From Arsenophonus sp. (GTDB taxonomy: Bacteria; Pseudomonadota; Gammaproteobacteria; Enterobacterales; Enterobacteriaceae): a DNA stretch of 64,000 nt. Shown piece by piece: positions 1 to 37,876 of this stretch. Under the pieces are notes generated by a model that did not search any database, had not been told where the DNA came from, and saw nothing but the letters and a program-made list of their open reading frames with translations. Position numbers and translations under genes: made by a program. The stretch spans positions 67,921 to 131,920 of the forward strand of contig CP132907.1 in the NCBI GenBank assembly GCA_031446105.1, written 5' to 3'. The stretch's first letter is position 1; every line of letters begins with the position of its first letter.

Positions 1-1849
1 TGCTCCAAAATAAAGTTCCTATTTTATTTTATTTATTATAATAAAAATTCAATAAAAATTAAAAAATGATTTTACATATTGCAAGATATTTACTTTATAA
101 AAAGAATTATACTAAAAATTTATTAATATTTTTAAATAATCATGGTTTTATATATTCTCTTATATAAATACTGATATGTTATTATAAATAAATCATAATA
201 TTTTTTAACAAAAAAATGTAATTTCTTTTGTTGATTTTTTGTGATAATCATAATGAATAAAAAAAATATTTTTAATCAAAAGATTATTTATAATGAAATT
301 TTTGATTATTGATAATAAATTTTATAAAAATAATTTATTTTTGTATTTAAATATGCTTATAGAAATTAAATATTCTTTTTATAATTTTTTCTAAAAATTA
401 TTTTTTTAAATATTATTTAACGATTTATAGTCTATATAAAATAATTATATTTTATATAAAATAATAAATGAAATTTATAAAAGATTTGTATATATTAAAA
501 ATATAAATTATGTTATCGCTTTTTAAGCGTCTTTAATAATAAAAGTAATTAATATTAAAATAAAATATATCTTTTTTTAAAATGGGTAAAATGAATTATT
601 AAAGATAATTATTATTTTTTTATAAAAAATCAAGTATTATATTAATATAATTCTTAGATTTATAAAGGTTAATAATTATTGTGTTTTTATTTTATAAAAA
701 TGATATATTTTTGTAATATCAATTAAGTTATCTGCAATGATTTTTTTTAGATAAGGTTTAATTTGCATTTTATAAAAATGTATTAAACAAGAAATATTAA
801 TAATTTAAAAAATATTTAAGGATTATATCTAAAGATTTAGCAGTATTTTTAAATATTTTTATTGATTTTGAATGGATAATTTCATGAATACAATATATAT
901 AATGTTGTATTAATAAAAATTTTTATAAAAGAAAAAATATGATTTTTTCATATATAATTAATTTTTTTTAAATTGTATAATCCAGAATATGTGTTCCAAA
1001 TATAAAAAACTGTTGTTTTTTTTATTTGTTTTTTGATATTTTTATTTTAGATTTTTTATTATATTTAATAATATAAAAAAATAATTTTTAGTATTTAAAG
1101 TAATTGAGTAACTATTTATTTTTTAGCATTCTTTGATAATATGTTTTAAGAATTAATATTTTTTGATTTGTTAATAATTTTGATATATTTTAGTAATTAT
1201 TTTAATTTATGTATTATAGAACATTTATAGATAATTTTTTGTTTTTTTAATAAAATAATAATGATTATAAAATATTTTTTAATATTCTTTAGTTAATAAA
1301 TTATTATTGAGCATTAGTTATTTTTATTAAAATAAAAAAGATATTAGTTATTTTTTAATAAGTATTCAGTATTTTATTTTAAAAATTTATTAAATTTATT
1401 AAATTTTATAGAATATAAAAAAATCATGTTAATAAAAAAAATATAAAAATAATAGAGTTTTATCTAAGATAAATCATAATAAATAATGTTTTTTTTGACA
1501 TAAAAGTTATGATTCTATTTTAAAAAAAGCAGAAATATTATAAAAATAATGTAAAAATGTATAGTAAAATGTTCTATATAAAATTATAGAAATTTAATTA
1601 AGATTTTTTTAATTATTTTATATTATAGAATAAATAATTCATATAATGAAAATAAATAAATATTATTAAATTAATAGTTTTTATAGTATGTAAAGAAAAT
1701 TATTTATTTTTTATAAAAAATAAAATTTGAGTATAAAATATTAGTATTTTAATTGTTTTTTTGTGCACAAAAGAGTAAAATATTTTTTTTATTAATTAAA
1801 TTTTTATTTAAATGATTTTAGTATTTTTTGAACTAATTAAGAGAATTTT

Positions 1850-2092
1850 ATGGTAATAATCCGTTTAGCTAGATGTGGTGCGAAAAAACGTCCATTTTAT
1901 CAAGTGGTTGTTACAGATAATCGTAATGCACGTGATGGTCGTTTTATTGAACGAATAGGTTTTTTTAACCCAATTGCATCAGGTCGAGCAAAAAAAATAT
2001 TTTTAAAATTAGATCGCATTGATTATTGGATTTCTGTAGGTGCACAAATTTCTAACCGTGTTTTCACGTTAATTAAACAACTAAAAAAATAG
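1850..2092 (+). CDS. rpsP: 30S ribosomal protein S16
   Basis: 80-aa [24 protein letters not shown]...[12 protein letters not shown] matches E. coli S16 ([21 protein letters not shown]...GRFIERVGFFNP, from memory). It is the first gene of the conserved rpsP-rimM-trmD-rplS operon. Confidence 0.97.
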
Positions 2093-2107
2093 TTTATTTT
2101 TTTATAT

Positions 2108-2649
2108 ATGATTAAAAAAAAAATATCAATTTAATTCATCCAATTGTATTAGGAAGATTAGGTTCAACATATGGAGTTAATGGTTGGATGAAAGTATTTT
2201 CATTTACTGAAAATATTCAAGATATTTTTAATTATCAACCATGGTTTGTTAAATTGTTCAAAGAATGGTACAAATTAGAAATAGAAGATTGGAAATATGA
2301 TAATAAAAATATTTTTATAAAATTTAAAAATATTTATGATAAAGAACATGCTAATTTAATGATTAATTATAAAATTATAGTAGATTCAGCACAGTTTCCT
2401 ATTCTTAAAAATGGTGAATACTATTGGAAAGATTTGATTGGTTGTAAAATTTTTAATACTCAAAGTTATTATTTGGGTTGTGTAACAAATTTAATTGTAA
2501 CAGGAGCAAATGATGTATTAATATCAAAAAACTTTAAAGATTTTTTTGGAATTAAAGAAAGACTAATACCATTTATTTATAAAAAAGTTATAAAGAAAGT
2601 TGATATTAATACTAAAATAATTCAAGTAGACTGGGATCCAAGTTTTTAA
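2108..2649 (+). CDS. rimM: 16S rRNA processing protein RimM, reading frame interrupted at an A10 tract
   Basis: The ORF from ATG 2188 matches RimM ([41 protein letters not shown]). The same frame upstream of that ATG encodes [22 protein letters not shown], matching E. coli PIVLGKMGSSYGIRGW, but it is closed by TAA at 2113-2115. The only upstream ATG (2108) is in another frame and joins across A10 (2114-2123) if one A is added. Length is 542 nt, i.e. 2 mod 3. Confidence 0.8.
2114..2123 (+). repeat. A10 homopolymer at the rimM frame break
   Basis: Ten consecutive A counted directly (attAAAAAAAAAAtatc). An eleventh A gives [16 protein letters not shown]... Confidence 0.9.
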
Positions 2650-2680
2650 AGATTTTTTAAATATTTTTAGTGGAAAAATT

Positions 2681-3423
2681 ATGTGGATTTGGACTATTAG
2701 CTTATTTCCTAAAATGTTTCATGCAATAACAAATTATGGCATAACAAGTCGTGCAATAAAAAAAAAACTATTGAGAATAGAGTGCTCTGATTTAAGAGAT
2801 TATGCTCATGATAAAAGACGTACTGTAGATGATCGTCCTTATGGTGGAGGGCCGGGAATGTTAATGATGTTTCAACCTATTAGGGATGCAATTAATACCG
2901 CAAAATCTTTTATGGGTCGGGATGCTACAGTGATTTATCTTTCACCACAAGGTAGAAAACTAAATCAAAAAGGTATTTTTGAATTATTATTAAAAAAAAA
3001 ATTATTTTAATATGTGGTCGATATCAAGGTATAGATCAAAGAATTATTGAAAGTGAAATTAATGAAGAATGGTCAATAGGTAATTATGTTCTTACTGGTG
3101 GAGAATTAGCTGCAATGGTAATGATTGACGCTATTTCTCGTTTTATTCCTGGTGTTTTAGGTCATAAGCAATCAGCAGCAGAAGATTCTTTTATAACAGG
3201 ATTATTTAATCCACCTTATTATACACGTCCTAAATCATTAGACAACATGGTAGTGCCTGATGTTTTGTTGTCTGGTAATCATAATAAAATTCACCGTTGG
3301 AAAAAAAAACAGGCATTAGGATGTACTTGGCTTAAAAGACCTAAACTTTTGATAAATTTAAAATTAACTCAAGAACAAAAAATGTTGTTATTAGAATTTC
3401 AACAGGAGTATAAAAAAAAATAA
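2681..3423 (+). CDS. trmD: tRNA (guanine37-N1)-methyltransferase TrmD, reading frame interrupted at an A10 tract
   Basis: ORF 2681-3010 matches the TrmD N-terminal half ([30 protein letters not shown]). ORF 3115-3423 matches the C-terminal half ([26 protein letters not shown]). The frame of the second ORF is open back to 3001 and encodes [38 protein letters not shown] (E. coli [38 protein letters not shown]). The two frames meet at A10 (2992-3001). Length is 743 nt, i.e. 2 mod 3. Confidence 0.87.
2992..3001 (+). repeat. A10 homopolymer at the trmD frame break
   Basis: Ten consecutive A (ttaAAAAAAAAAAtta). One extra A gives ...[17 protein letters not shown]... Confidence 0.9.
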
Positions 3424-3496
3424 TAATATATTTTATAAAATTAATAATATATTTAATATATATTTTTTGTAATGGTTTTTTTGAAAAAAGGTAACT

Positions 3497-3850
3497 ATGA
3501 ATAATATTATTCAAGAATTTGAAAAAGAACAAATAAAAAATTGTATTCCATTATTTAGACCAGGTGATTCTATAGAAGTTAAAGCGTGGGTCGTGGAAGG
3601 TTCTAAAAAAAGGTTACAGGCATTTGAAGGTTTAGTAATTGCTATGCGTAATCGTGGTTTTCAATCTTCATTTACTTTAAGAAAAATTTCAAATGGAGAA
3701 GGTATTGAAAGAGTATTTCAAACTTATTCACCAATTATAGATAGTATTATTGTAAAACGGTATGGCGTTGTGCGTAGGGCTAAATTATATTATTTAAGAG
3801 GGCGTTCTGGAAAAACAGCTCGTATTAAAGAACGTCTTAATATCAAGTAA
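3497..3850 (+). CDS. rplS: 50S ribosomal protein L19
   Basis: 117-aa ORF with typical L19 motifs ([42 protein letters not shown]). It is the last gene of the rpsP operon. Confidence 0.97.
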
Positions 3851-4156: not shown

Positions 4157-4426
4157 TTGTTAGAATTATTAAAATTACGTAAAAAAATAGATAAAATTGA
4201 TACATTATTATTAAAATTATTAGCAAAAAGAATAAAATTAGCAACGATAATTGGCGAAATTAAATGGAAAAAAGGATTGCCAATTTGTGAAAGAGAACGT
4301 GAAAATAAAATTTTGGAATTACGACGTAAAGAAGCACAAAAAATAGGTATTTCAGCTGATTTAATAGAAGATATTTTACGTCGTATTATATGTGAATCTT
4401 ATAAGTATGAACAAAAAAAAATATAA
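4157..4426 (+). CDS. tyrA: stand-alone chorismate mutase domain (N-terminal fragment of tyrA; the prephenate dehydrogenase domain is missing)
   Basis: 89 codons with a TTG start, AAGG 10 nt upstream and an in-frame TAA at 4142. LELLKLRKKIDKIDTLLLKLLAKRIKLATIIGEIKWKKGLPI...DLIEDILRRIICESYKYEQKK aligns without gaps to E. coli TyrA residues ~4-92 ([42 protein letters not shown]...DLIEDVLRRVMRESYSSENDK). It sits at the syntenic tyrA position between rplS and bamD. No ORF or recognisable similarity follows it. Confidence 0.72.
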   Translation: MLELLKLRKKIDKIDTLLLKLLAKRIKLATIIGEIKWKKGLPICERERENKILELRRKEAQKIGISADLIEDILRRIICESYKYEQKKI

Positions 4427-13194: not shown

Positions 13195-14972
13195 GTGATT
13201 TATAATTACTTTTAATTTAAAATTTATAATTGTTTTTAATTTAAATTAAGTAAAAAAATTATTTTTATTATATAAAATTAATATTATATTTTATTATAAT
13301 TTGTCATATTATTTTAATGCAGAGATATTTTTAAAAATATGAATTTATTATAATGATATTTTTTATAAATTTATGTACAAGTTTTTAAAAATTTTAATTA
13401 TTTTTTAATAAATTTTTATAAATTTAAATTATCAGAATTTTTTATCGTTTCTTAATAAGTATAAAGATTTATTTTTAAAATATTATTAAATATAGAATAA
13501 ATTTATTTGCATAATATTAATTAATATTATTTTTGCAATAATTAAAAAATTTATTAAAAAAATAAATGTTTTTCTTAAAATAAAATGGGTTAATTTTATT
13601 AAGTAAAAAAATTTGTTTTTTTATTTATTAAATCTAATAATTTTTTTAAAATTGGTAAGTTATTTTTATTTTTATCTTAAAATATAATTTTTTAATAATT
13701 TATTTTTTAATTTTTTAATGGAATTAGTATTTTTTTATTAAATATATTATAGAATATTTTTTATTTTATATTATAAATATTTTAGTATTTATTAATTTTA
13801 ATTTTTAATAGTTTAAGGTGATTTAATTTATATTTTTTTAAAATATCAGAAAAAATAGTAATTAAGATATGTATAATTTTTTTATTTATGTTTAAAATAG
13901 ATTTTTAATCTATTTTATTATATTTTAATTAGTTAATTAACAGTGTGTTTTTATGTTAGTTTAAGATTTTTCTTAAATTAAAATTTTTATAATTTTGATT
14001 AGATTATACTTAATTTTTATATTTTTTTCTAAAATTTTATTTCATTATTCTAATTAATATAAATAATTTTATAGTAAAATAATAATTTTCATGGATTATA
14101 AGAGATTTTTTATAACATTTTTTTAATTAAAAATTTTAATCATTTAAAATCTATAAAAAATTAAAAAAATAAGTTTTAAGAATTAAAATTAAAATATTTT
14201 ATTAAAAATTATTATTTTTATTTATTTTTATATTTTAATTTATTTTTTTTCTTAGAAAATAATTTTAATATTAGTTTTTTATAAAAAATATTTGATATAT
14301 AAATATTATATTTTTTTAAAAATAAATTTTGCTGTATTTTTATTATAGTATTTTCAAGTTTGTAATATTACTATTTGCAGTGGTTCTTTTATAATATATA
14401 ATTATTTAATAATTATTACTTAATTTTTTAAAAAATAAAGTAATATTAAAAATAATATTTTTTTTGCATAATTTATTATAAAATTTTTTATATTTAAAAA
14501 AATATTGGTTTAGCTTATTTTTTATCTATAAATAAAAAATTTTATCTATGTGTATTATTATTTATGATATCATAGTTTCAGTTATATTAAATTCATAAAA
14601 TTTAAGAAAATAAATAATAAAAAAATTAAAAAAAATTATATTTTAAAATTAATATTATTTTTCTTATATAAATTATTGCATATTATTTTTTTTGCTTTAT
14701 GTTATATTAAAACAGTTTTTAACCCAGAGATTTATTTTTTTCGGTTGATGCTTAATATTACTTTTAATTTATATTTAAAATATTATTTTTTATTGATTAT
14801 ATAAAATTTTATGTTAATCATTAATTTTGTTATATTTAATCTAAAAATATTTAATTATTTTTTAAAAACATATGTAATTTTCTAATTATAGAAAATACTG
14901 CACAATTTCTAATAAAATTCATAGTATAAAAATAATTTAATATAATATTGTTTATTTAGATTTTTTTTATTT

Positions 14973-15047
<75 letters not shown>

Positions 15048-15089
15048 TTTTATTTAATATTTTTTTATTTTTTAATTAAATGGTTTTAT

Positions 15090-15166: not shown

Positions 15167-15203
15167 ATAATTTATTTTTACATTTATTTTGTTTATTTTT
15201 TTT

Positions 15204-15290
15204 GCGATTGTGGCGGAATGGGTAGACGCACTAACTTCAGATGTTAGTATTCTTTTTATGAATTTAGGGGTTCAAGTCCCCTCTTTCGCA
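15204..15290 (+). tRNA. leuT: tRNA-Leu (anticodon CAG), long variable arm, acceptor stem with two mismatches
   Basis: Type II tRNA. D region is TGGCGGAATGGGTAGACGC, anticodon arm is CTAAC-TTCAGAT-GTTAG, variable stem is ATTC/GAAT, and T arm is AGGGG-TTCAAGT-CCCCT. The acceptor GCGATTG pairs with CTTTCGC, leaving T5-T68 and T6-T67 unpaired. It occupies the leuT position in the argX-hisR-leuT-proM order. Confidence 0.72.
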
Positions 15291-15347
15291 TAATAAATTG
15301 TAAATTTATTAATATAATAAGTGGTATGATAATAAAAAAATCTTTTT

Positions 15348-15424
15348 CGGCGAGTAGCGCAGGTTGGTAGCGCAACTGGTTTGGGACCAGTAGGTCGGAG
15401 GTTCAAATCCTCTCTCGCCGACCA
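15348..15424 (+). tRNA. proM: tRNA-Pro (anticodon UGG)
   Basis: Perfect acceptor CGGCGAG/CTCGCCG. The anticodon arm is CTGGT-TTGGGAC-CAG..., the T loop is GGTTCAAATCC, and CCA is encoded. It is almost identical to E. coli proM. Confidence 0.92.
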
Positions 15425-36156: not shown

Positions 36157-37125
36157 TTATATTTTTTTTGCAATTAAAATAGCTCGTATTGGAGCAGGAT
36201 ATCCTTCTATTGTTAAATTATGATTTTCTGGTTTAAGAAAGTCTTCCAGTGATTCATTTTTCATCCAGAGTGTTTTTCTTTGTTCTTGTATTGTTGTTGG
36301 TGTTTGATTTATAATTTTTATATCGTAAAATCTGCATTTTTTTAACCAAATTTTTAACATTTTTGCTGATGGGATGAAATATACATTGCGCATTTTAGCA
36401 TAACGTTCAGTAGGTATCAAACATTGATTTTCATCACCTTCAATCACTAAACTTTCTAATATTATTTCACCATCTGAAACTAGTTGATTATTTATTTTAT
36501 ACAAATGTTCTAATGGTGAACGGGAATGATAAATAACACCCATCGAAAATACTGTATCAAATATATTCGATACAGGCAGTTGTTCAATAGTTAATGGCAA
36601 TAAATTTATTTTTTGAATGTTACCAAGTAATTTACGAATCGCTTCAAATTGATATAAAGATTTTTCGATAGGATCAATTCCTACTATAAATTTTGCATTT
36701 TCACCCAGTATTCTCCACATGTAATATCCATTACCACATCCTACATCAAGTACTAATTTATTTTTTAATGTTGAAATATAAGGGATTATACGCTGCCATT
36801 TTAAGTTTGATTGCCATTCACTATCAATTTTAATACCATATATAGAAAATGGACCTTTACGCCATGGCATTAACTTTTTTAATAATTGAATAATTTTTTT
36901 CATATCTTTTAAAGAAAGATTTACTTTTTTTTTTGCAATAATTCCTGTTTTTAGATTTATATAATCTGGTGTTATTTTTGGTAAATTATATACTATTTTT
37001 TTCCAATATTGAGATTGTTTATTTTGTTTTTTTTTCCATTGTTCAATTTGATATGGTATAGTTTTTAGCCAAATACTCAGTGGTCCAAGAGCTATTTTTT
37101 GATAAAAAAATCCAAAGTTTATCAT
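36157..37125 (-). CDS. cmoB: tRNA U34 carboxymethyltransferase CmoB
   Basis: 322 aa. PWRKGPF, LDVGCGNGYY.WR, G.DP, FSMGV.YH.RSP..HL and RNVYFIPS match E. coli CmoB. Its ATG overlaps the cmoA stop (ATGA). Confidence 0.94.
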   Translation of the reverse strand: MINFGFFYQKIALGPLSIWLKTIPYQIEQWKKKQNKQSQYWKKIVYNLPKITPDYINLKTGIIAKKKVNLSLKDMKKIIQLLKKLMPWRKGPFSIYGIKIDSEWQSNLKWQRIIPYISTLKNKLVLDVGCGNGYYMWRILGENAKFIVGIDPIEKSLYQFEAIRKLLGNIQKINLLPLTIEQLPVSNIFDTVFSMGVIYHSRSPLEHLYKINNQLVSDGEIILESLVIEGDENQCLIPTERYAKMRNVYFIPSAKMLKIWLKKCRFYDIKIINQTPTTIQEQRKTLWMKNESLEDFLKPENHNLTIEGYPAPIRAILIAKKI

Positions 37126-37876
37126 TTGTTTTGTGCTTTAATGGCTAAGAATGAACCGAAATTAAAATATTGAAAGTATAATTCGTAATGCTGGAAACCA
37201 GCTATATTTAATCTTGATTTGTGTTTTTTTATTGAATCAGTAATCATAATATTATCTAACATTTTTTTTTTTGATGAATTTCTTTTATACTGTATCCATT
37301 AGCAAGTTTAAAATCATAATGCATATTAAATAATAAATTATGAATTTTTTTGTCATTAAAACTAAATTTTTCTGATAATACCAATAATCCGCCAGGATTT
37401 AAACCTTTATAAATGCGATTAATTAATCTTTGACGTTTTATTGGAGTAATGAATTGTAATGTAAAATTCAAGACTACCATGGAAGCATTTTTTATTTTTG
37501 TATTAAGAATATCTTCTAAAATTATTTCAACAGGTATTTTTGTTTTGTAAGCATATAGATATTTTTTGCAAAGTTTAATCATGGATTTTGAATTATCAAT
37601 AGCAAGTATTTTATAGTTTTTTAAATTACTATTACAAAGTATTGATAGTGTTACTGCTCCTAAAGAGCAACCTAAATCATAAACAAAACTGTTAGGTGTT
37701 ATAAAATATTTTGCTAACATTCCTATTATGCTAAGAATATCAGTATATCCAGGAATAGAACGTTTTATCATATCAGGAAAAATTTTTGCAATTTTTTCGT
37801 TAAATTCCCAATTATCTAAGTTTTTAATAGGTTTTATAAATAAAATATCTTTTTTTGTTATTTTTTTTTTAATCAT
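37122..37876 (-). CDS. cmoA: carboxy-S-adenosyl-L-methionine synthase CmoA, reading frame interrupted at an A11 tract
   Basis: ORF 37876..37256 matches CmoA residues 1-~205 ([60 protein letters not shown]). After A11 (plus-strand T11, 37262-37272) another frame encodes [47 protein letters not shown]. coli has [48 protein letters not shown]. That frame ends in a TGA overlapping the cmoB ATG. Length is 755 nt, i.e. 2 mod 3. Confidence 0.87.
37262..37272 (-). repeat. A11 homopolymer (T11 on the plus strand) at the cmoA frame break
   Basis: Eleven T counted on the plus strand (ctaacaTTTTTTTTTTTgatg). A twelfth A in the mRNA gives ...[13 protein letters not shown]... Confidence 0.9.

Follow-up and report, generated by a model that had tools for sequence, protein, structure and literature searches.

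A split trmD beside a poly(A) tract in Arsenophonus, probably rescued by slippage

How can a symbiont keep a working tRNA methyltransferase when the gene for that enzyme is broken in its genome sequence? The question is raised by trmD of an Arsenophonus sp., which lies in a stretch of 64,000 nucleotides (nt) of contig CP132907.1, here called the window, with a G+C content of 20.5%. The gene belongs to an rpsP-rimM-trmD-rplS operon, arranged in the same order as in Escherichia coli and all relatives, and it is split into two open reading frames (ORFs) next to a run of ten A residues. The answer that we consider probable is that trmD is functional: a real deficit of one base would be compensated by +1 slippage at the A10 run, most likely during transcription. 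The features that bear on this reading are as follows.

1850..3850, + strand: operon context, rpsP - rimM - trmD - rplS
2681-3423, + strand: trmD, split gene of this operon
2681..3010, + strand: 5' part of trmD, frame 0, codons 1-109, matching positions 2-84 of the PF01746 profile
2758..2767, + strand: tract 1, an upstream A10 that is in frame in the window; A9 in four sister genomes and their frameshift site
2983..3423, + strand: 3' part of trmD, -1 frame, codons 108-247 of the repaired protein, matching PF01746 profile positions 81-195
2992..3001, + strand: tract 2, A10, the proposed slippage site, from a base-exact count and alignment
3002..3006, + strand: TTATT, probable true lesion site, from alignment with the sister genomes (TTAATT), columns 343-349
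3301..3309, + strand: tract 3, in-frame A9 (W KKK Q), from the sequence
3412..3420, + strand: tract 4, in-frame A9 at the C-terminus (Y KKK stop), from the sequence

Frame 0 of trmD runs from the ATG at 2681 to a TAA at 3008-3010 and ends in ...ELLLKKKLF*. This stop falls two codons past the A10 run, and the last codons, LF plus the stop, represent out-of-frame read-through. The -1 frame (equivalent to +2) is preceded by a TGA at 2980-2982, opens at 2983 and continues to the stop at 3421-3423. An earlier note on this DNA, made from the sequence alone, had described the same split at the run of 2992-3001 and the same ORF end, and both were confirmed. The two open frames overlap by 25 nt (2983-3007), and the only slippery element within that overlap is the A10 run, read in frame 0 as TTA AAA AAA AAA and thus presenting an A_AAA_AAA heptamer. 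The trmD split lies far beyond chance: off-frames of the gene contain 26-28 stops per 247 codons, a stop-free stretch of 141 codons would be expected with a probability of about 4e-6, and a random 25-nt overlap window would hold a sense A tract of at least 10 nt with p of about 0.001. The gene has a single 1-nt deficit, 2-3 nt 3' of the A10 run, and no further stop or indel. One A added to the run gives a 247-amino-acid (aa) product, and two removed from it give 246 aa. Of the three additional in-frame A9 tracts listed by the earlier note, those at 3301-3309 and 3412-3420 were found as described, and the one at 2758-2767 proved to hold ten A residues. A second intact trmD, which the same note had named as speaking against its interpretation, was not found within the 64-kb window.

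Adding one A was also said to yield a protein colinear with E. coli TrmD, and this was borne out. Residues 1-245 of the repaired product aligned without a gap to E. coli 1p9p (E 2e-107), and the alignment with Haemophilus influenzae 4mcb was likewise gap-free. Compared with profiles of TrmD, the tRNA (guanine37-N1)-methyltransferase of the SPOUT class, the repaired product scored 203.8 bits against Pfam PF01746 (cut-off, 27.3; profile positions 2-195 of 195), 306 bits against NCBIfam TIGR00088 (equivalog cut-off, 195) and 295 bits against NF000648 (cut-off, 220), and each unrepaired half matched only its own portion of the PF01746 profile. The 3' part carries the knot, the S-adenosylmethionine (AdoMet) loops, including GRYQGID, and the catalytic residues R154 and D169. 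E116, R154 and D169 are active-site residues of TrmD (PMC1829167), and mutation of Y86, Y115, G117, G141 or S165 impairs its function (PMC8643618). The repaired protein retains R154 and D169 together with all five of the latter residues. Around the junction, L108I is the sole difference between the rescued protein and the sister proteins, at a position that is L in 71% of homologues. As a side observation, D128N, D135N and D177N are changes at sites that are conserved in at least 95% of homologues. We also considered an enzyme made of two separately translated pieces. This candidate was rejected, as the -1 frame has no ATG, GTG or TTG until M146 (3115), and a separately started C-terminal fragment would miss residues 110-145 with the GRYxGID and SIGxYVLxGGE loops.

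Relatives were sought in one genome per species. Four close ones were found, with TrmD identities of 84-91%, all of them obligate Arsenophonus symbionts of louse flies whose chromosomes measure 0.92-0.94 Mb: the symbiont of Ornithomya chloropus (L001, OZ032148), K22b (L002), K9a (L003) and K20 (L004). The window belongs to this group of symbionts, which have genomes of about 0.9 Mb and about 21% GC. Three of the four are separate Illumina assemblies and the fourth is a separate isolate record; the window is identical to none of them. Symbiont genomes of O. avicularia, O. fringillina and Crataerina hirundinis were obtained from Illumina 2x250 reads (Rihova et al. 2023, PMC10654098). In all four relatives trmD is likewise one base short, and there the deficit lies at tract 1, which is A9 in contrast to the in-frame A10 of the window. 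Their frame 0 terminates in ...AIKKNY*, and from there on the gene, tract 2 and the stop codon included, continues in the -1 frame. A tree of RpsP, RimM, TrmD and RplS (625 gap-free columns), rooted with two more distant Arsenophonus that have an intact trmD (L005 and L007), gave the topology (L003,(L001,(window,(L002,L004)))), with 100% bootstrap for the group of the window, L002 and L004. The outgroups have no tract at either site (KNGLL and NKKLIL). On this tree, parsimony (3 versus 4 events) favours an ancestral shift at tract 1, followed in the window lineage by reversion from A9 to A10 and by a new deficit beside tract 2. Independent origins are possible because indel rates in homopolymers are high. 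Whichever path was taken, an uninterrupted trmD is present in no sampled genome of the clade.

Alignment with these relatives also places the lesion of the window. At tract 2 the relatives read, in phase, TTA AAA AAA AAG TTA ATT TTG (L002-L004) or TCA AAA AAA AAA TTA ATT TTG (L001), and the window reads TTA AAA AAA AAA TT- ATT TTA. The simplest route to the window state would combine an AAG-to-AAA change, extending the run from 9 to 10, with loss of one A from TTAATT. The alternative of an A11 miscounted as A10 would require two additional transversions; judged by homology, the window lesion is not a homopolymer miscount. The break had been attributed to the A10 tract itself. The tract does adjoin it, but the missing base is best placed 2-3 nt further 3', where TTAATT became TTATT.

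Two further observations concern trmD outside the window. In the O. chloropus symbiont (L001, 3001-3734) the only trmD product on record, P0001, is a 217-aa ORF from an internal TTG (codon 30), which lacks the conserved, out-of-frame first 28 codons. Such an internal start after tract 1 was rejected as the functional form in the relatives because the 26 upstream codons are conserved, with a ratio of nonsynonymous to synonymous substitution rates (dN/dS) of 0-0.33 and no indel. Splits near codon 107 were seen in three metagenome contigs of 42-56% GC (L008 at 1181-1929, L009 and L010), with fragments of 142-146 aa (P0135, P0230). These were set aside: a poly(A) tract is lacking at the splits, adjacent genes are disrupted too, and for one organism two assemblies contradict each other. 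They are most likely assembly errors, unrelated to the window.

Selection on the gene was assessed over 245 codons, each trmD having been repaired by one A before pairwise dN/dS was computed. Across the gene, dN/dS was 0.13-0.19 at dS of 0.20-0.42. Besides codons 1-26, upstream of the relatives' shift, low values were obtained for codons 30-103 (0.11-0.19) and, past the shift of the window, for codons 108-245 (0.13-0.28). The ratio of nonsynonymous to synonymous changes (N:S) upstream of the shift was 3:5 on the window branch. Downstream, dN was 0.033, about 0.25 of the regional dS, and some 11 nonsynonymous changes stand against a neutral expectation of about 43 (P of about 5e-9). The neighbours taken as intact (rpsP, rimM, rplS, chorismate mutase, bamD and rluD) gave a dN of 0.042, a dS of 0.132 and a dN/dS (omega) of 0.32 on the same branch, about twice the value of the sister lineages (0.16-0.20). 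Relaxation specific to trmD was accordingly rejected, because the dN of these neighbours on the window branch is equal or higher. Either the lesion is recent and accounts for under about a quarter of the branch, or selection still acts on the downstream part. Purifying selection persists on trmD on both sides of the shift throughout the clade, and the local counts on the window branch are small.

trmD is not the only gene of the window that is broken at a long tract. Two others were found.

2108-2200, + strand: start of rimM, out of frame past codon 5, with an A10 tract at 2114-2123 abutted by a 7-nt deletion
37122-37876, - strand: cmoA (carboxy-S-adenosyl-L-methionine synthase), split at an A11 run at 37262-37272 (...EIHQKKKC*)

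The earlier note had counted trmD as the second broken gene of the operon, next to rimM. The latter is indeed broken at its A10, by a deletion of 7 nt (GATTTTT...) that immediately follows the tract, which itself changed from A9G to A10 relative to the sister genomes; rimM is intact in the relatives. Repaired by one nucleotide, the product is a RimM equivalog match over positions 2-165 of 166, and the first in-frame ATG (2188) would drop conserved N-terminal residues. For cmoA, one added A gives a full-length CmoA equivalog (348 bits; cut-off, 285); cmoB, which follows it at 36157-37125, is intact. The window contains 40 A/T tracts of at least 9 nt, 11 of them at least 10 nt and 29 of 9 nt, and within ORFs such tracts are sense poly(A), encoding lysine, in about 27 cases versus 3 of sense poly(T). 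A frameshift adjoins three of the 11 longer tracts (in trmD, rimM and cmoA) and none of the 29 nine-nucleotide ones; the remaining 8 of the 11 and all other genes are in frame. Every one of these lesions, and that of trmD in the relatives, requires +1 nt. Because two of the three window lesions lie outside the homopolymer proper, the association of lesions with tracts is better explained by the survival of lesions that slippage can rescue than by miscounting.

The split of trmD, the colinearity and conservation of its repaired product, the broken state across the clade and selection on the gene were thus observed directly; slippage itself, and the machine that slips, we infer. The proposed course of events starts with a deletion in TTAATT, where an A situated 2-3 nt downstream of the A10 run is lost. 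RNA polymerase would then slip backward on the T10 template and produce a share of A11 mRNAs. Messages with A8 or A14 would also restore the frame with a lysine count changed by one, and these variants fall where E. coli TrmD has TNQ, the stretch that immediately precedes KLILVCGRY. Full-length TrmD would come only from the fraction of expression events that read one additional A, and a -1 ribosomal shift on A_AAA_AAA may provide a minor or alternative route. A reduced output could be tolerated because TrmD would be needed in small amounts compared with the co-transcribed S16 and L19. In the trmD operon of E. coli, the level of TrmD is far below those of S16 and L19. The gene shares its transcript with ribosomal protein genes that are strongly expressed (PMC8643618).

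Precedent for such rescue comes from other endosymbionts. Frameshifted genes with long poly(A) tracts in Buchnera and Blochmannia yield 12-50% corrected transcripts, according to the passage of PMC5009743 in which Tamas et al. 2008 is cited, and in B. vafer the essential genes dnaX, dnaG and pth are frameshifted (PMC3017870). Such frameshifts are shared between species, and those of ytfM and erfK are found at different positions or have reverted, depending on the species (PMC3017870). In Buchnera, 151 of 157 insertions in transcription fell within A/T homopolymers, were mostly +1, and rose exponentially with run length (PMC5574713). This bias and this dependence on length match the direction of the lesions described here and their restriction to tracts of at least 10 nt.

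Several points weigh against this reading of trmD. Slippage must also occur at tracts 1, 3 and 4, which keeps the yield of correct message low. Traverse and Ochman reported no restored reading frame in their Buchnera data (PMC5574713). The shift site of the window is unique to the window genome. E116 (codon 116, 3026-3028) has become Q in the window, L002 and L004, and is E in L001 and L003; E116Q, H180Y and R215C hit sites conserved in at least 95% of homologues. On the window branch, N:S downstream of the shift was 6:2 with the repair-dependent L108I left out, and the downstream omega of about 0.5 contrasted with 0.13-0.14 in the sisters (Fisher p = 0.09), counts that are compatible with some relaxation. 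Among possible substrates, tRNA-Leu(CAG) at 15203-15291 has A37 (loop TTCAGAT). The E. coli tRNA-Leu(CAG) has G37 and is a TrmD target. The A37 of the window could reflect AT pressure or less reliance on N1-methylguanosine 37 (m1G37). Finally, E. coli trmD knock-outs are viable, slow-growing and adapt via proS (PMC8643618), so that the loss of trmD is not impossible.

Another reading is that of a recent trmD pseudogene in a symbiont that does without m1G37 or is adapting to its absence, for example through proS or changes in tRNAs. This account is strengthened by the viability and quick adaptation of E. coli nulls (PMC8643618), by the three substitutions at conserved sites, by the downstream N:S and the A37 of tRNA-Leu(CAG), and by the dN/dS of 0.32 in the window lineage versus 0.16-0.20 in the sisters, as ongoing erosion predicts. 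Nevertheless we regard it as unlikely. The gene has one lesion, followed by 141 codons with neither stop nor indel at 80% A+T, and its downstream dN of 0.033 does not reach the 0.042 of intact neighbours and lies roughly fourfold below neutral; therefore neutral evolution can cover at most about a quarter of the window branch. A one-base deficit at poly(A) in trmD has proved compatible with long-term purifying selection in the sisters. In Mollicutes, few tRNA modification enzymes withstand genome erosion, and TrmD is one of them (PMC4014445). The genes for tRNA-Pro(UGG) and tRNA-Arg(CCG), which adjoin tRNA-Leu(CAG) in the window (14972-15048 and 15348-15424), keep G36-G37. The earlier note had likewise held a null allele to be unlikely for an essential trmD. 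The full-length product and the selected deficit of the sisters uphold that view, but its premise of essentiality is weakened by the viable knock-outs, and E. coli with less than 10% of normal m1G is viable at reduced growth (PMC8643618).

A functional gene could also have its frame restored mainly in translation, by a -1 shift of tRNA-Lys on A_AAA_AAA as at E. coli dnaX. The heptamer is in the correct phase both at tract 2 of the window and at tract 1 of the relatives, a -1 shift gives exactly the conserved protein, the frame-0 stop follows two codons downstream, and endosymbionts may evolve efficient corrective frameshifting (PMC5009743). However, the 70 nt downstream of the site fold no better than shuffled sequence in the window, at the relatives' site or in cmoA (z of -0.58 to +1.46), no Shine-Dalgarno-like (GGAGG-like) element was found about 10 nt upstream, the position of the shift site is not conserved, and the experimental precedent in endosymbionts is transcriptional. 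The site of E. coli dnaX, A_AAA_AAG, is the better ribosomal shift site. For that reason the AAG-to-AAA change specific to the window would not help the ribosomal route: it replaces the more shift-prone sequence yet lengthens the homopolymer from 9 to 10, which favours RNA polymerase slippage over a dnaX-type shift. We consider a mainly translational rescue improbable. Still less probable is that the split is absent from the genome or from some of its copies, through a consensus error or mixed tract lengths in a polyploid population. Homopolymers of at least 10 nt are the hardest sites on every sequencing platform, all three broken genes of the window lie at such tracts, and no independent assembly of the same species was found for comparison: searches for sequence of the same organism gave no exact-protein match for the 109-aa ORF or RplS, a gapped DNA pattern across the shift site had no match in metagenome contigs, and a protein search with the C-terminal half of trmD returned only the O. 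chloropus fragment P0001. Against this, the missing base belongs to an AA dinucleotide outside the tract, and a true A11 would entail the two extra transversions noted above. The 7-nt deletion of rimM cannot be a miscount, no frameshift affects the other genes or 8 of the 11 long tracts, and an analogous lesion recurs in four independently sequenced relatives. Transcriptional slippage at the A10 run is thus the explanation that we prefer.

Two other candidates were rejected. When m1G37 is missing, +1 shifts become more frequent at proline codons. Autoregulation through m1G37 was dismissed, as what trmD requires is a -1 shift (or +1 nt), and this at lysine codons, so that the feedback does not fit. 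Reassignment of UGA does not account for the split either: the blocking stop of the window is TAA, and the TGA of the relatives is followed by a TAG two codons on.

A bolder view is that the frameshift is a selected or entrenched attenuator of expression and not merely tolerated damage. Slippage decoding would then replace a lost translational control, the one that holds RimM and TrmD far below S16 and L19 in E. coli, and TrmD output would be tied to the fidelity of the polymerase. The view is based on the lack of any intact trmD in the clade, on the repair of tract 1 followed by a new deficit by tract 2, itself extended to A10, and on the similar break of rimM, which encodes the second low-abundance protein of this ribosomal-protein operon. 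We think it doubtful.

Under slippage rescue, Arsenophonus of louse flies would be the fourth symbiont lineage of this kind and would add a central translation-fidelity gene to the list of those that depend on slippage. It would follow that trmD, rimM and cmoA should be annotated as slippage-dependent and not as pseudogenes or truncated ORFs, and that reconstructions of metabolism and translation should count m1G37 as present. There is some irony in the case, as TrmD itself guards the cell against +1 ribosomal frameshifting. The five genomes amount to a natural experiment in which trmD has stayed one base short over a dS of about 0.4 while the site of the deficit moved, and their comparison opens the question of whether such lesions are neutral ratchet damage or tuned expression valves.

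Other decay was noted near the operon. Upstream of rpsP, window positions 1-1850 consist of about 1.8 kb of ORF-free, AT-rich DNA, and no match to ffh (SRP54) was obtained by tblastn with an Arsenophonus Ffh query, either in the window or, for the four relatives, in the 2 kb preceding rpsP (positions 1-2150 of L001-L004). At this place ffh is decayed in the more distant Arsenophonus L005 and L006 and intact in L007. At 4157-4426 (+ strand) the window encodes a stand-alone chorismate mutase of 89 aa (TIGR01799 CM_T, the TyrA N-terminal domain) whose ORF ends just past an A9 tract; a 90-aa ORF is kept in 4/4 sister genomes. Of tyrA, the prephenate dehydrogenase portion has been lost, and about 900 ORF-free nt follow.

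Compared with known systems, the trmD site shares with E. coli dnaX an X_XXY_YYZ lysine heptamer in phase, at which a -1 shift gives the conserved frame. It differs in having neither a Shine-Dalgarno-like stimulator nor a downstream stem-loop, in a heptamer that ends in AAA and not AAG, and in that the shift makes the only functional product and not a second isoform. Programmed transcriptional realignment occurs in free-living bacteria at runs of 9 A or T, with dnaX and Shigella (PMC5009743) and tssM of Citrobacter rodentium (PMC4256274) as examples. The likeness is that polymerase slips on an A/T run of about 9-11 nt and makes mixed mRNAs, a subset of which encodes the full-length protein; the programmed sites are conserved and give two useful products or serve regulation, whereas the trmD site is not positionally conserved. 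There is also no sign of a role for the truncated 109-aa trmD product. Phase-variable (contingency) genes (PMC2831843) offer another parallel, since homopolymer length sets the frame and tract 1 is A9 or A10 depending on lineage. Phase variation involves heritable DNA changes in surface or restriction genes of pathogens, whereas trmD encodes a housekeeping tRNA methyltransferase and is carried by a symbiont that is clonal and inherited vertically.

The closest counterparts are the slippage-rescued poly(A) frameshifts reportedly found in Buchnera aphidicola and Blochmannia spp. by Tamas et al. 2008 and Wernegreen et al. 2010. Unlike those, the present lesion, in trmD of an Arsenophonus of Hippoboscidae, lies in the window just outside the tract and concerns a gene that is broken throughout the sampled clade. 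No paper was found that describes the present case by connecting trmD, a frameshift, a symbiont and slippage. Four points are mildly new: all sampled genomes of the clade have a one-base deficit in an essential-class translation gene, this trmD deficit moved between tracts, in the window a second gene of the operon is affected as well, and the enzyme is one that itself protects against +1 shifts of the ribosome. The likenesses are extensive. As in Buchnera and Blochmannia, the setting is the extremely AT-rich, reduced genome of an obligate symbiont, and a single frameshift at a sense A tract of at least 9-10 nt interrupts a housekeeping gene that is otherwise intact and under purifying selection. 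The frameshift is conserved between species, here at tract 1 in four genomes, and, as with ytfM and erfK of B. vafer, the site of the indel differs by lineage, with an apparent reversion. The phenomenon is already well described in those endosymbionts, and the window extends it to a new lineage and a new gene.

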